A stretch of DNA of 48,175 nucleotides from an uncultured Bacilli bacterium (GTDB taxonomy: Bacteria > Bacillota_I > Bacilli_A > RF39 > UBA660). Every line of letters starts with the position of its first letter. The first letter of the stretch is position 1. Location: contig CALVSZ010000001.1 of the NCBI GenBank assembly GCA_944359705.1, forward strand, positions 1 through 48,175, written 5' to 3'. The position numbers and the translations under genes are program-made. The notes under the pieces are model-generated. The model did not search any database. It had not been told where the DNA came from and saw only the letters and a list, made by a program, of their open reading frames with translations. Shown here one piece after another: positions 6,936 to 29,433 of this stretch.

Positions 6936-7832
6936 ATGATAAGAGAATATTCATATAAAAATGATAAAGATAAAGTGTTAAGTAAACATTTTAAAGTAGG
7001 GGAATTTGCGTCAATTGATAATCGTGGTAATAAACTTACTACTGATAAAATATTAATTGATGATAACCTAGTTGTAATGTTAGAAAAATTATATGATTAC
7101 TTAAATAATTTATATGGAATAAAAAGTATATTAATTACGTCTGGCTATAGAAGTGCTGATTTTGAAGCATCTCTTCCTGGTGGTGTTTTAAATGGTCAAC
7201 ACACGAAAGGAACTGCTGTTGATATTATTGTAAATAAAAGTAGTGGTGGTAGTGTTGATGCTAAATTAGTATGTTGTGCTGCTGAAACAGTAGGATTTAA
7301 TGGAATAGGGTATGGTAGAACATACACGCATATTGATGTAAGAAGTAGTAAAAGTTATTTTGATGAAACTAATGGTAAAACAGGAATAAGTAGTTTTTAT
7401 TCTTACTTTAATATAGTTAAACCAAATAACGATAAACCAAATACAATTAATAACAAATATAAAGTAGGAGATGTTGTAAGTATTAATGGGGTATATGTAT
7501 CTAGTGATTCAGAAGAAAAATTAAAACCTAAAGTTATAACAGGAACAATTACAAAAATAGTAAGTGGGGCAAAAAATCCTTATTTACTTGATAATGGTAA
7601 TATTGGTTGGGTAAATGATTCAGTTATAATTAATAATAATGTTTATTTAAGTAATCCAACTTACAAAGGAACATCTCTAGTAGATGCTCTAAATGAAATT
7701 AATATAGATAGTAGTTATACTTATCGAAGTAAACTAGCTATAAAAAATAATATTAATAATTATAAAGGAACAGCAGAGCAAAATATAACTATGTTAAACT
7801 TACTTAAGAAAGGTAGATTAATTAAATTTTAA
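6936..7832 (+). CDS. Peptidase M15-type (zinc D-Ala-D-Ala carboxypeptidase/endolysin-like) cell-wall hydrolase with C-terminal binding modules
   Basis: QHTKGTAVDI and YTHIDV (the H-x6-D ... H zinc ligand pattern). The middle is SH3-like (KYKVGDVVSINGVYV...GWVNDSVI). The C-terminal ~50 aa (SLVDALNEINIDSSYTYRSKLAIKNNINNYKGTAEQNITMLNLLKKG) resemble wall-binding modules of phage lysins. Confidence 0.7.
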   Translation: MIREYSYKNDKDKVLSKHFKVGEFASIDNRGNKLTTDKILIDDNLVVMLEKLYDYLNNLYGIKSILITSGYRSADFEASLPGGVLNGQHTKGTAVDIIVNKSSGGSVDAKLVCCAAETVGFNGIGYGRTYTHIDVRSSKSYFDETNGKTGISSFYSYFNIVKPNNDKPNTINNKYKVGDVVSINGVYVSSDSEEKLKPKVITGTITKIVSGAKNPYLLDNGNIGWVNDSVIINNNVYLSNPTYKGTSLVDALNEINIDSSYTYRSKLAIKNNINNYKGTAEQNITMLNLLKKGRLIKF

Positions 7833-22235: not shown

Positions 22236-22398
22236 AGTTTTGATAGAGAGTAAGTGGTTGGTGAAAACTTATAAACAATAATTATGAACTTGTCTTTTTA
22301 GTTGCTTTTAAGCCGGGTAATTACGTTATAAATATGAGTAATAAGGTAGGATGGTACCGCGTTTATACGCTCCTAGATATTTAGGGGTGTATTTTTTT
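22236..22398 (+). promoter_or_regulatory. T-box riboswitch leader with Leu (CUU) specifier
   Basis: GATAGAGAGTAAGT (GA/K-turn plus AGAGUA), distal-loop GGTTGGTGAAA, GAA-CTT-G specifier context (CTT 22289-22291), T-box sequence GGATGGTACCGCG (22349-22361), and a terminator helix at 22367-22390 followed by a T-run to 22398. Confidence 0.85.
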
Positions 22399-25290: not shown

Positions 25291-25491
25291 GTGATTTATC
25301 CATCTATAGATAAAATATTAAATATTGTTGATTCTAAGTATGCACTTGTTTATATTGCAGCTGATAGAAGTAAACAAATGACAAAGACTGGTTATTACCA
25401 AATGAAAGAAAGTGATTACAAATGTCAAAGTAATATTGGAAGGGCTTTGGAAGAGGTTTATAATAATTTAATTAAAGTAGAAAAAAAATAG
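25291..25491 (+). CDS. rpoZ: DNA-directed RNA polymerase omega subunit
   Basis: YPSIDKILNIVDSKYALVYIAADRSKQM matches the RpoZ core pattern. 66 aa. GTG start behind GGGAG. Confidence 0.8.
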   Translation: MIYPSIDKILNIVDSKYALVYIAADRSKQMTKTGYYQMKESDYKCQSNIGRALEEVYNNLIKVEKK

Positions 25492-25506
25492 AATTGGAGT
25501 AAAAAT

Positions 25507-25947
25507 ATGGCATTAGAATTTAGACGAGCAAATATTGATGATATAGAAGGAATTGTGGATTTGTGTAATGAATGTTTTGAAGAAAATACAGATTATAAAT
25601 ATGCAAGAGATGTTTTTCAAAAAACAATAAATGATGATAATCATATATATTTAATAGGAGTTTTAGATAGGGAGATAGTTGCACACACTAAAATTACAAT
25701 AATTCCAACAATTTTTGCAGGAATGGACACTTATGCCATTTTAAATCATGCATGTGTAAAAAGAAAATATAGAAGAAAAAATATAGCCACAAAGATGTTA
25801 ATAGAAGTCCAAAAAATAGCAAAAGAACAGGGATGCGTAGATTTGAAATTATGGTCTATGAATTTTAGAAAAGCAGCACATAAGTGTTATAAACATTTTG
25901 GATTTAAAGCAATTAATGCAAAATTTTTTAGAAAGAATATACTATAA
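25507..25947 (+). CDS. GNAT-family N-acetyltransferase
   Basis: 146 aa. Acetyl-CoA motif VKRKYRRKNIATKML and C-terminal HKCYKHFGF. Confidence 0.8.
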   Translation: MALEFRRANIDDIEGIVDLCNECFEENTDYKYARDVFQKTINDDNHIYLIGVLDREIVAHTKITIIPTIFAGMDTYAILNHACVKRKYRRKNIATKMLIEVQKIAKEQGCVDLKLWSMNFRKAAHKCYKHFGFKAINAKFFRKNIL

Positions 25948-25952
25948 AGATT

Positions 25953-25976
25953 ATGAGATTAATTTCTCATTTTTTT
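25953..25976 (+). terminator. Intrinsic terminator after the GNAT gene
   Basis: ATGAGA-TTAATT-TCTCAT followed by TTTTTT. Confidence 0.6.
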
Positions 25977-26013
25977 GTGCTATTTTAAGTAAATTAAAGT
26001 AGTTTAAGTTTAT

Positions 26014-26796
26014 ATGTATAATAGGGGGTGTTTTGGTATTAATAATATTTTAAAATTGAATAAAGAATTTATGAGAATAAAAAATATGGGATGGGTACGT
26101 ACTGTTGTAAATGGAAGTGCTGGCGTTGGATTAACTTTTGAGTATTTGTTAGGAAAGGAGTTTGATAATGAAGGATTACCTGATTATGAAGGAATTGAGA
26201 TTAAAGCAAGAAGATGTTATACAAAATCTTTAATTAATTTATTTAATGGGAATCCTAATAGCAAAGAGAAGGTTGCCCAATATCTGGTTAACAATTATGG
26301 TTATCCTGATTATATATATAAATCATGCAATGTTTTGTCTGCTGAAGTTGATACGTTAGAAAAAAGAAAAGCGGGAAAAAATTATAAATTTATATTAAAG
26401 GTTTTTAGAAAAGGTAGACGTGTTGGATTATGGATTTATGATTCAGATGATAATATTATGGATGGTACAACTGTTTATTGGACATTTGATTATTTAAAAG
26501 AGAAGCTTGAAACCAAGTTAAAATTACTTGCAGTTGTTGTTGCTAGTAGGAAATTTGTAGATGGAATAGAATATTTTCATTATGTAACAATTAGGTATTA
26601 CCAATTAAAAAATTTTAAAACTTTTATAAGTTTAATTGAAAAAGGTATAATATCCATATGCATAAAGATAAGTGTTTATAGACGTGGTGACAAAATAGGA
26701 ATGATTGATGATAAAGGTATTTCTTTTAGAATTAAATATGAAGATTTGGATAAGTTATTTACCAGAATAAAAATAGAAAAAGATACTTACATGTAG
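26014..26796 (+). CDS. MvaI/BcnI-family (MutH-related) PD-(D/E)xK restriction-endonuclease homologue, solitary
   Basis: GSAGVGLTFEYLLGKEFDNEGLPDYEGIEIKAR has the D-x4-E-x-K spacing (D 26182-84, E 26197-99, K 26203-05). The C-terminal block KLLAVVVA...YFHY...LIEKGIISICIKI...DKGISFRIKYEDLDKLF is colinear with my memory of BcnI/MvaI. There is no SD before the ATG. Confidence 0.65.
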   Translation: MYNRGCFGINNILKLNKEFMRIKNMGWVRTVVNGSAGVGLTFEYLLGKEFDNEGLPDYEGIEIKARRCYTKSLINLFNGNPNSKEKVAQYLVNNYGYPDYIYKSCNVLSAEVDTLEKRKAGKNYKFILKVFRKGRRVGLWIYDSDDNIMDGTTVYWTFDYLKEKLETKLKLLAVVVASRKFVDGIEYFHYVTIRYYQLKNFKTFISLIEKGIISICIKISVYRRGDKIGMIDDKGISFRIKYEDLDKLFTRIKIEKDTYM

Positions 26797-26810
26797 TTAG
26801 TATCTTTTTT
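26780..26810 (+). terminator. Intrinsic terminator overlapping the nuclease gene stop
   Basis: AAGATACT (26780-87) pairs with AGTATCTT (26799-806), followed by TTTT. Confidence 0.6.
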
Positions 26811-26888
26811 AGTATGGGGCAATATTATAAGTACTTATATTTTTTTAGCAGAGGGTCAAGGTGTTTGGGTAAAAGGAAAGCTTGGGAC

Positions 26889-26924: not shown

Positions 26925-27001
26925 TGGTCGGGAAGACAGGATTTGAACCTGCGACCTCTACGTCCCAAGCGTAGCGCTCTACCAAGCTAAGCTACTTCCC
27001 G
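26925..27001 (-). tRNA. tRNA-Pro (anticodon UGG), CCA encoded
   Basis: The reverse complement CGGGAAGTAGCTTAGCTTGGTAGAGCGCTACGCTTGGGACGTAGAGGTCGCAGGTTCAAATCCTGTCTTCCCGACCA folds as a cloverleaf with anticodon loop CUUGGGA. Confidence 0.95.
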
Positions 27002-27005
27002 AAAA

Positions 27006-27082
27006 TGGTGGAGAATGAGGGACTCGAACCCTTGACCCTTTGCGTGCAAGGCAAATGCTCTAGCCAACTGAGCTAATTCCCC
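27006..27082 (-). tRNA. tRNA-Ala (anticodon UGC), CCA encoded
   Basis: The reverse complement is GGGGAATTAGCTCAGTTGGCTAGAGCATTTGCCTTGCACGCAAAGGGTCAAGGGTTCGAGTCCCTCATTCTCCACCA. The G3:U70 identity pair is present and the anticodon loop is CUUGCAC. Confidence 0.95.
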
Positions 27083-27094
27083 AAGACATGATAA

Positions 27095-27123
27095 ATTATA
27101 TCAGTAAATGGAGCATCTGTCAA
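27095..27123 (-). promoter_or_regulatory. Consensus sigma-A promoter for the tRNA-Ala/tRNA-Pro pair
   Basis: The minus strand reads TTGACA, a 17-nt spacer, then TATAAT. The -10 element ends 12 nt upstream of the tRNA-Ala 5' end. Confidence 0.8.
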
Positions 27124-27312
27124 CCCTATTTTGAAAAAAATCTAAATAAAAGGAAAGCTCAGAGGGCTAGAGTATCTGACTCCAAGCCAAGTTAAATAGA
27201 AAAACTATAAATAGATGGTAAACGGCTTTAGCTGTTCCCATAGGGATATAAAATACTTATATTTTAATATATGATATATAAAAAAATTTAATACTAAAAA
27301 AAGATTGGTACG

Positions 27313-27993: not shown

Positions 27994-29433
27994 ATGAATG
28001 ACATACAAAATAAAGCAATAACTAAAAGAGATGTTGATTTTGCTAAATGGTATACAGATGTTGTTAAAGCAGCAAAACTTGCAACATACTCTAATACAAA
28101 AGGATGTATAGTGTTTGAACCAAATGGATATGCAATTTGGGAAAAAATGCAAAGTGTACTAGATAGTGAATTTAAGAAAACGGGGCACCAAAATGTTTAT
28201 ATGCCGCTTTTGATACCGGAAAATTTGATGAATAAAGAAGGAGAACTTGTAAATGGATTTGCTCCGGAAGTAGCATGGGTTACTATTGGTGGCCAAAAAG
28301 AATTGGATGAAAGATTATGTATAAGGCCAACTTCGGAAACTTTGTTTAGTGATTACTATTCTTCTGTTGTAAAATCATATCGTGATTTACCTAAATTATA
28401 TAATCAATGGTGTAATGTTCTTAGGTGGGAAAAAGAAACAAGACCATTTTTAAGAAGTAGAGAGTTCTTATGGCAAGAAGGTCATACTGTACATGAAACT
28501 AAGGAAGAAGCGGAAAAAGAAACACTACAAATGCTTAATGTATATAATGACTTCTTTCATAATTATTTAGCTATTCCATCTATCGTAGGTAAAAAAACTG
28601 ATAAAGAAAAATTTGCAGGAGCAGAATACACTTATACAGTAGAGTCTCTTATGTATAATGGAGTATCTTTGCAATCAGGTACATCACATTATTTTGGTCA
28701 AAAGTTTTCACGTGCTTATGATATAAAATTTGTAAATAGAGAAAATAAATTTGATTATGCATATCAAACATCATGGGGAGTGACTACTAGAATGATTGGA
28801 GCCTTAATCATGGTTCATTCAGATGATTATGGACTTGTACTTCCTCCTAAAATTGCTCCTAGACAAGTAGTAATTATCCCAATTAAAGATACACTAGAAG
28901 TAAGTAATTTAGCACACAAATATTTAGAAGAATTAAATAAAAATAATATTATTTCATATATAGATAATACTAATAAAAGTGCTGGGTTTAAGTTTGCAGA
29001 AGCAGAAGTAAATGGTATTCCTATTAGAATAGAGATAGGACCAAGAGATTTAGAAAATGGTAAAGTAGTTTTAGTTAGAAGAGATACTAGAGAAAAAATA
29101 GAAATAGATATTAATTCTAATATAGTAGAGACTATCATTAATTTAATGAATGATATTCAAAATAATTTATATAATAGAGCATTAGAAAGAAGAAATAAGC
29201 AAACGTATATTGCTCATAATTTAGATGAAATGACTGATATTATGAATAAACACCCGGGATTTATTAAAGCCATGTGGTGTGGAGATCCTGCTTGTGAATT
29301 AAAGATAAAAGAAATAAAGGGTACTAAATCAAGATGTATTCCGTTTGATGAAGAGCAAGAACATATTGATGATAAATGCGTTTGCTGTGGTAAACCTGCT
29401 AAGAAAATGGTCGTTTGGGGTATACAATATTAA
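27994..29433 (+). CDS. proS: Prolyl-tRNA synthetase (short archaeal/eukaryote-like type without the bacterial insertion domain)
   Basis: DFAKWYTDVV...FEPNGYAIWE...RPTSET...FLWQEGHT plus the C-terminal zinc-type domain CVCCGKPAKKMVVWGIQY. Start at the ATG 27994 behind GAGGTG. Confidence 0.95.
   Translation: MNDIQNKAITKRDVDFAKWYTDVVKAAKLATYSNTKGCIVFEPNGYAIWEKMQSVLDSEFKKTGHQNVYMPLLIPENLMNKEGELVNGFAPEVAWVTIGGQKELDERLCIRPTSETLFSDYYSSVVKSYRDLPKLYNQWCNVLRWEKETRPFLRSREFLWQEGHTVHETKEEAEKETLQMLNVYNDFFHNYLAIPSIVGKKTDKEKFAGAEYTYTVESLMYNGVSLQSGTSHYFGQKFSRAYDIKFVNRENKFDYAYQTSWGVTTRMIGALIMVHSDDYGLVLPPKIAPRQVVIIPIKDTLEVSNLAHKYLEELNKNNIISYIDNTNKSAGFKFAEAEVNGIPIRIEIGPRDLENGKVVLVRRDTREKIEIDINSNIVETIINLMNDIQNNLYNRALERRNKQTYIAHNLDEMTDIMNKHPGFIKAMWCGDPACELKIKEIKGTKSRCIPFDEEQEHIDDKCVCCGKPAKKMVVWGIQY

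Follow-up and report, generated by a model that had tools for sequence, protein, structure and literature searches.

How can a bacterium keep a restriction endonuclease when no methylase is there to protect its own DNA? The question is raised by an open reading frame (ORF) at positions 26014..26796 (plus strand; 260 residues as called from the first ATG, stop codon included) of contig CALVSZ010000001.1 from an uncultured Bacilli bacterium. The contig in its entire length of 48,175 bp (hereafter designated the window) is part of a 1.23-Mb metagenome-assembled genome (MAG) of 96 contigs, with 25% G+C and a completeness of 91.8%, and the ORF encodes a MvaI-like PD-(D/E)XK nuclease. A restriction enzyme free of a methylase should kill its host, yet the branch of MvaI-type nucleases described here is intact, strongly selected, normally translated and of long-standing inheritance at a single chromosomal site, and therefore needs an explanation. 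We conclude that ordinary restriction is almost certainly not its mode of action, and tentatively propose that the nuclease is conditionally active, most probably in dependence on a modification of its target.

A preliminary description, made from the DNA sequence alone, had regarded the protein as a homologue of MvaI and BcnI with an intact catalytic triad, and profile and structure comparisons bore this out. The Pfam model MvaI_BcnI (PF15515) matched with an E value of 6.4e-38 and 131.4 bits (gathering cut-off, 25 bits) over profile positions 2–227 of 227, that is, the full domain, and a six-frame search of the whole genome placed its single PF15515 locus at 26014–26796. A phmmer search against the PDB found R.MvaI (2oa9) with an E value of 1e-32, and a branch profile built from relatives of the nuclease retrieved MvaI (E 2.8e-58) and BcnI (E 5e-14). 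The AlphaFold2 model (predicted local distance difference test, 92.1; predicted template modelling (TM) score, 0.87) was superimposed by Foldseek on the MvaI-DNA complex 2oaa_A with an E value of 5e-26, TM scores of 0.88/0.92 and a root mean square deviation of 1.5 Å over 242 columns, which predicts a monomeric protein with the two-lobed MvaI-type fold, consisting of a catalytic and a recognition lobe. R.MvaI (Kocuria varians; CC^WGG; type IIP monomer; PDB 2OA9/2OAA) thus belongs to the same Pfam family, with ~30–33% identity over the full length, and R.BcnI (CC^SGG; PDB 2ODH/2ODI) has the same family and fold (Foldseek TM 0.68/0.74) but is far more distant, being missed by the single-sequence search. 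The catalytic residues of MvaI are Glu36, Asp50, Glu55 and Lys57 (PMC1874612). In an alignment with MvaI and BcnI, their equivalents are E43 (26140–42), D57 (26182–84), E62 (26197–99) and K64 (26203–05) in the catalytic core at 26140..26205 (plus strand), with no loss at any of the four positions; the motif PDYEGIEIK and the coordinates of its D, E and K had been given exactly, and E43 adds the fourth residue. All four are invariant in 84 of 84 branch members. The nuclease is thus a full-length member of the family and, judged by these residues and the predicted fold, should be catalytically competent. PADLOC assigned it only as a type II restriction endonuclease and gave zero matches on the neighbouring genes, and NCBIfam holds no model for it.

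The absence of a DNA methyltransferase from the 48,175-bp window, already pointed out in the preliminary description, was found to extend to the whole 91.8%-complete assembly, where PF01555, PF00145, PF02384 and PF02086 gave no match. Two weak matches to PF07669 were rejected as DNA methylases, being PrmC (beside prfA) and a TrmN6/YabB-like tRNA methylase (in the holB-yaaT-rsmI cluster), and when 1290 ORFs were scanned for methylase motif IV and PCQ, only RsmD, ThiI, an SPFH protein and an insertion sequence fragment were added; a matching methyltransferase was accordingly not detectable with the four Pfam families and the motif scan. The potential targets are nevertheless there. The sites CCTGG (7176–7180), CCGGG (22313–22317) and CCCGGG (29253–29258) noted in the window are real, and the window holds 17 CCNGG sites, which equals chance expectation. 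The genome as a whole contains 383 CCWGG sites, mildly under-represented with a Markov observed-to-expected ratio (O/E) of 0.74, and 102 CCSGG sites (O/E 0.91). With so many sites, an orthodox enzyme of CCWGG or CCSGG specificity would be lethal, and a different or conditional activity is therefore needed, in line with the earlier argument that an active enzyme of this kind would require protection, another specificity or another role. No short palindrome or pseudo-palindrome is missing from the genome. The most under-represented short sites are GTSAC (O/E 0.37; 135 occurrences), GGTACC (0.47), GAATTC (0.47), GATC (0.48), CASTG (0.51) and CATG (0.59); such under-represented palindromes may record past or community restriction pressure, in a genome that encodes no DNA methylase. 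Site avoidance was also considered as a clue to the target and discarded, no site of low O/E pointing to the nuclease.

The nuclease belongs to a large methylase-less MvaI branch of small-genome, low-GC gut Bacilli. A homologue was present in 11 of 36, then in 54 of 200, sampled genera (~27%) of the same family of gut Bacilli, and in none of 24 genomes from outside that family. None of the matches in this survey contained an internal stop; seven genomes had two matches, and in six of these both copies were full-length. A scan of species-representative genomes gave 440 relatives, the best 80 of which underlie the locus counts reported here. All 80 came from MAGs of uncultured gut Bacilli, including 'Clostridium sp. 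CAG:302' and Candidatus Scybalousia, and the ORF was open at every locus. Among the 680 ORFs lying within ~6 kb of these loci, none carried a C5-methylase motif and a single one, a 178-residue ORF that we read as RsmD-like, carried an amino-methylase motif; nor did DNA methylase families appear among the frequent families in Pfam scans of 235 neighbours. As positive controls, the same motif test flagged a methylase at three of three plasmid restriction-modification (R-M) loci and at 10 of 15 distant relatives on viral contigs; a near-exact MvaI on a Macrococcoides plasmid lies in the order divergent methylase, small gene, nuclease. At least five carriers are without any PF01555 or PF00145 methylase. 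In the maximum-likelihood tree, four orthodox MvaI-type enzymes group together (Shimodaira-Hasegawa-like approximate likelihood ratio test (SH-aLRT), 94), opposite to 92 of the 93 rows of the solitary branch (SH-aLRT 84). Moreover, the ratio of nonsynonymous to synonymous substitution rates (dN/dS) of the nuclease among three congeners was 0.07–0.12, as compared with 0.08–0.09 for leuS, and the nuclease is thus under purifying selection comparable to that on leuS. All-against-all clustering of the 680 flanking ORFs revealed no conserved partner gene, no neighbour recurring in more than ~20% of the loci; a downstream 'ORF family' of 84 residues was dismissed as a conserved neighbour, since it consists of tRNA genes read as protein. 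Repair and replication genes do recur, with a MutY-type glycosylase at eight loci and an ExoIII-type enzyme at four, along with RmuC, TopA, RecU and PriA.

The base contacts of the window protein differ from those of MvaI. The side chains by which MvaI reads CCWGG are Thr68, Thr102, Asp207, Arg209, His223, His225 and Arg230 (PMC1874612). Alignment by MAFFT with the MvaI and BcnI chains showed Asn, Glu, Cys, Lys, Asp, Lys and Arg, in this order, at these positions of the window protein, so that Thr68>Asn, Thr102>Glu, Asp207>Cys, Arg209>Lys, His223>Asp and His225>Lys are the changed contacts. According to the alignment and the model, five of the seven side chains contacting bases in the major groove differ, Arg209>Lys is conservative and Arg230 alone is identical; the equivalent of Lys159, a phosphate contact in MvaI, is also kept. 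Most of the changed contacts lie in a segment at 26659..26730 (plus strand), where C216 corresponds to Asp207, K218 to Arg209, D232-D233-K234 to His223-Asp224-His225, and R239 to the retained Arg230. These substitutions speak against the assumption, made in the preliminary description, of a CCWGG or CCSGG specificity. The six commonest residues of the branch at the Asp207 position are T, S, N, C, V and E, mostly Thr, Ser, Asn or Cys; none of the six is Asp, in contrast to Asp in five of five orthodox sequences. The H/Y-D-H/R recognition loop is mostly kept across the branch, and the sub-branch of the window protein has D-D-K. In the branch alignment, the variability of the base-contact columns equals or exceeds that of the mean column (entropy, 2.08 vs 1.88), in contrast to the invariant catalytic residues.

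Translation of the gene had been suspected of being leaderless or deliberately weak, and this view is not supported. In the branch, 57 of the 80 genes have an ATG behind a recognisable Shine-Dalgarno (SD) sequence, often AGGAGG; because of this, the product appears to be tolerated. In the window, the upstream ATG at 26014 indeed has no SD and is overlapped by TGTATAAT (26015..26022, plus strand), an extended –10-like motif of putative promoter use that the two-hexamer scan did not list. The TATAAT reported on top of the ATG is therefore there, with its TG, but at 26017–26022 rather than 26016–26021. The statement that an SD is lacking applies to this ATG but not to the ORF, inside which an SD-like AGGGGG (26023..26028, plus strand) precedes an ATT codon at 26038..26040 by 9 nt. 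This ATT aligns with the TTG start of two congeners and the ATG of most of the branch; a one-nucleotide difference turns the TTG into ATT in the DNA alignment with these congeners (G002 and G003), which have AGGAG or GGAGG in place of AGGGGG. Homologues read MNNIIKL... at the N terminus, and the start of the relatives lies 10–12 codons before the conserved Phe19. ATT 26038 behind AGGGGG is thus likely to be the start, rather than the leaderless ATG. As described earlier, the gene is bracketed by terminators, or at least by terminator-like hairpins on RNA folding: one at 25953..25983 (plus strand; –8.5 kcal/mol, z –2.35) belonging to the upstream gene, and one at 26776..26810 (plus strand; –12.9 kcal/mol, z –3.5; inverted repeat I22) overlapping the stop codon of the nuclease gene, each followed by a T-run. 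Neither was called by a consensus terminator scan requiring at least three G–C pairs, their stems being AT-rich. The upstream hairpin would set the nuclease gene apart as a unit of its own.

The gene is followed, 128 bp past its stop, by a convergent tRNA-Pro(UGG) gene (26925..27001, minus strand; ARAGORN and Rfam). This is the last gene of an Ala-Pro mini-operon, in which tRNA-Ala(UGC) and the operon promoter, TTGACA-17-TATAAT, occupy 27006..27123 on the minus strand (ARAGORN; promoter scan 12/12 with TG extension). The tRNA pair reported as a neighbour is therefore confirmed, spanning 26925–27082 on the minus strand, and the label of the upstream gene as a GCN5-related N-acetyltransferase (GNAT) was taken over as called. 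A tRNA gene lies within 600 bp downstream of the nuclease gene at 57 of the 80 loci, and in 55 of these 57 it is tRNA-Pro(UGG) on the opposite strand, tail-to-tail, with a spacer of 23–377 bp that is typically ~100 bp. At 23 loci the contig ends within 600 bp of the gene, and only about seven loci with enough sequence are without a tRNA gene there. In the branch, tRNA-Pro closes a pair with tRNA-Ala or with tRNA-Arg, or an array of 12 tRNAs, the type of array clustering on the protein tree, and the junction with the tRNA is constant across the 80 loci in contrast to the very varied upstream neighbours.

tRNA loci being classic integration spots, the preliminary description had raised integration as an origin of the gene, and a tRNA-targeted island was considered and rejected. 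No direct repeat of the tRNA-Pro 3' end flanks the nuclease gene, no integrase family occurs among the listed neighbour families of the 80 loci, and synteny and the tree favour descent. Two congeneric species share the order leuS, small genes, nuclease, tRNA-Pro/Ala and proS, with 81–85% identity, and on a contig of 176 kb a homologue with 56% identity precedes the same proS-secG-rnr-capA-smpB block. The gene thus appears, from this conserved order, to be vertically inherited at a fixed chromosomal locus. Among sister genomes, the gene is present in the two congeners and absent from G001 and G005, but these non-carriers offer no clean, exact empty site, their junctions being rearranged. The region is a rearrangement breakpoint within the genus. 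The tRNA-Pro genes and operon are identical in carriers and non-carriers of the genus, and in G005 a remnant survives that is ~70% similar to the spacer and the nuclease-gene terminator, which points to loss rather than gain.

Further observations concern other loci. A second type of paralogue, found in genomes with two full-length copies (L129, L131, L133, L137 and L139, in G089, G070, G099, G215 and G122, and L135 in G184), has a C-terminal ..SKSG..G(K/R)Y(K/R)NKN..F.I in place of HDHGT. In five of six cases it adjoins a tRNA-Met(CAU)-tRNA-Leu(UAG) pair, being co-directional with and downstream of the tRNAs in four of these, and it has no methylase within ~4 kb. Three IMG/VR contigs (L140, L141 and L156) carry branch members or relatives, two at the very end of the contig and one followed by tRNA-Pro/Arg; such copies are probably not phage genes but host DNA flanking a prophage. 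In G002 (C71, 18253–19844), a weak PF15515 match (E 5e-5, profile positions 13–55) lies in a 471-residue frame adjoining a C5 methylase; the frame might encode a nuclease of MvaI type, either fused or distant, within an orthodox R-M pair.

Around the nuclease gene itself, the interval 25291–25947 of the window contains the 146-residue acetyltransferase-type gene, situated between a 66-residue ORF and the nuclease gene. The 66-residue ORF presumably resembles the omega subunit of RNA polymerase. In the congener G003 it directly precedes the nuclease gene, with a 177-residue gene after leuS instead, and in G005 and G001 leuS and the 66-residue ORF are on a separate contig beside tRNA-Leu(CAA). 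In these two non-carriers (L120 on G005:C6 and L122 on G001:C28), a gene of 579–600 residues, 42% identical to an ORF of contig C96 of the window genome, is convergent with tRNA-Pro. On the tRNA side, the tRNA-Ala/tRNA-Pro mini-operon lies between two perfect copies of a 13-nt direct repeat, TAAAAGGAAAGCT, at 26870–26882 and 27147–27159, and beside each copy is a GC-rich fragment resembling part of an inverted tRNA-Ala, namely GCAGAGGGTCAAGG (26848–26861) and AGCTCAGAGGGCTAGAG... (27156–27181). The repeats and the tRNA-Ala-like fragments may be scars of rearrangements at tRNA genes.

Since the host genome appears to be unmethylated while containing many CCWGG and CCSGG sites, and since most members of the branch have an ATG and an SD, the enzyme should be unable to cut unmodified DNA at a frequent site. 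In the reading that we tentatively prefer, a single nuclease molecule, like MvaI, would bind a short pseudo-palindromic site and would act only when the site carries a modification absent from the host, for example a methylated cytosine on phage or plasmid DNA. Such conditional cutting or nicking would resemble type IV or type IIM restriction, and the E-D-E-K metal site would cut one strand at a time. Type IV and type IIM enzymes need no methylase partner; the window nuclease shares this solitary status and, by analogy, might share their dependence on modification. Indeed, methyl-directed nicking of Cm5CGGG is a latent activity of MvaI (PMC3001055), which shows that the MvaI-type fold can act on methylated sites. 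The patchy distribution among genera, the double copies and the variable contact positions are, moreover, as expected of a defence gene whose specificity shifts. Several points weigh against a modification-dependent enzyme. That the enzyme depends on modification is purely inferred; it is unusual for defence genes to be inherited strictly vertically at one locus and to be nearly missing from collections of phages and plasmids, features that fit a host function equally well; and the conserved linkage to tRNA-Pro is unaccounted for by the model. The start codon, degraded to ATT in the window genome, may also keep expression low. Finally, C5 or N4/N6 methylases show no depletion among carriers: in a small sample of relatives, a C5 methylase was present in 5 of 12 carriers vs 8 of 25 non-carriers, with no negative association with cytosine methylases visible.

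The foremost alternative is a host function, in which the protein would no longer serve defence but would have been recruited to DNA metabolism, nicking specific sites or structures during repair, recombination or the maintenance of the chromosome. We consider this unlikely, although the gene is passed on vertically at one fixed position in the chromosome, is under purifying selection as strong as that on leuS and has normal translation signals in most members of the branch, and although repair and replication genes recur among its neighbours. A fixed host target is, however, difficult to reconcile with DNA-contact positions that are not conserved in the branch, and ~73% of the sampled genera do without the gene, which congeneric species have lost; there is also no conserved neighbour or partner gene. 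The particular form of this explanation that had been put forward, a repair or nicking role like that of MutH, appears unnecessary and unlikely, because MutL of this genome has endonuclease motifs of its own and a Dam-type methylase (PF02086) is absent from the genome. Both MutS and MutL are encoded, and the motifs that mark a MutL as endonuclease-proficient, DQHA(X)2E(X)4E and CPHGRP, occur in this MutL, the first of them as DQHAAEERINYE. MutH (PDB 2AOR/2AZO), the mismatch-repair nickase of Escherichia coli, is a monomer without an adjoining methylase gene, like the window nuclease, but it is only a remote structural relative of the catalytic lobe (Foldseek E 0.04, TM ~0.4, a marginal match), and it needs Dam methylation and an endonuclease-less MutL.

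A different form of restraint would be that a toxin-like or selfish gene is controlled by its position, being silenced by convergent transcription of the strong tRNA operon, or by some other conditional control, until growth stops or a phage shuts host transcription off. The tail-to-tail arrangement with a short spacer, the perfect consensus promoter of the tRNA operon in the window, the second paralogue type lying likewise beside tRNA genes, and upstream neighbours that vary while the tRNA junction stays constant are all consistent with it. In a variant of this idea, the protein would act as a homing-type endonuclease, encoded by a free-standing gene that maintains its own place next to a tRNA gene in the way of SegB in the tRNA cluster of phage T4. 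We nevertheless hold such positional control to be quite unlikely, because the nuclease and tRNA genes each have their own terminator hairpin and the second paralogue is mostly co-directional, not convergent, with its tRNAs. For a homing-type element, protected and sensitive target alleles are not visible in tRNA-Pro genes that are identical in carriers and non-carriers, and the tree fits descent together with the type of tRNA array, while the 3'-flank remnant in the non-carrier indicates loss, not invasion. A related, bolder idea is that a type IIP enzyme has given rise to a new methylase-independent class with a mechanistic link between tRNA genes and its activity or expression, which we see as an outside chance. 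Such an enzyme might, for example, be gated by the convergent, growth-rate-controlled tRNA operon, firing only once host transcription has collapsed, or might recognise a modification or structure of DNA in place of a plain sequence, and the tRNA-Met/tRNA-Leu paralogue would be a sister system.

An orthodox type IIP enzyme would have to be protected by an unbinned methylase, by a methylase of an unrecognised family or by the absence of its site from the genome. Precedents exist both for R-M systems whose components lie apart and for hosts free of the recognition site, as with PacI (PMC3488263). The genome is a MAG of 96 contigs, 91.8% complete, and binning tends to lose mobile DNA; the mild under-representation of CCWGG might also be read in this sense. 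We regard this explanation as very unlikely, given the five or more carriers devoid of PF01555 and PF00145 methylases, the absence of a linked methylase at 80 + 12 loci, many of them on contigs of 50–300 kb, and the changed CCWGG-specifying residues. Protection by a missing site finds no counterpart among the short palindromes or pseudo-palindromes, as even GTSAC, with the lowest O/E, still occurs 135 times. A decayed R-M system, of which the protein would be an inactive leftover, is scarcely credible and strongly disfavoured. The canonical start has been lost in the window genome, leaving ATT or an SD-less ATG, and the methylase partner is absent, but decay is contradicted by a dN/dS of ~0.1, by catalytic residues invariant in 84 sequences, by the open frames of all examined copies and by a confidently predicted, complete fold.

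Compared with known systems, the nuclease differs from R.MvaI not only in its base contacts but also in its genetic setting. The gene of R.MvaI has as its neighbours a small controller gene and, in divergent orientation, an N4-cytosine methylase gene, as on the Macrococcoides plasmid, and BcnI is likewise part of an R-M system, whereas the window nuclease, in a genome without a methylase, is chromosomal, vertically inherited and fixed beside tRNA-Pro. An orthodox MvaI-type R-M system would include an adjoining cognate methylase, which was found neither in the window nor in the genome nor at the 80 related loci, and the side chains that read CCWGG, which are replaced here according to the alignment and the model. 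To our knowledge, a fixed position beside a tRNA gene is no feature of type IV enzymes either. A survey of solitary restriction enzymes (PMC3488263) mentions neither MvaI nor BcnI.

Collectively, the branch has either a new target rule, such as modified DNA, a nick or a structure, or a new mode of control, and its tie to tRNA-Pro is an additional puzzle. It potentially represents a new specificity class on a well-understood monomeric restriction fold, from which a methyl-directed or nicking reagent might be obtained. For the organisms themselves, it would show how gut Bacilli with reduced genomes, many of them apparently without DNA methylation, defend or maintain their DNA.

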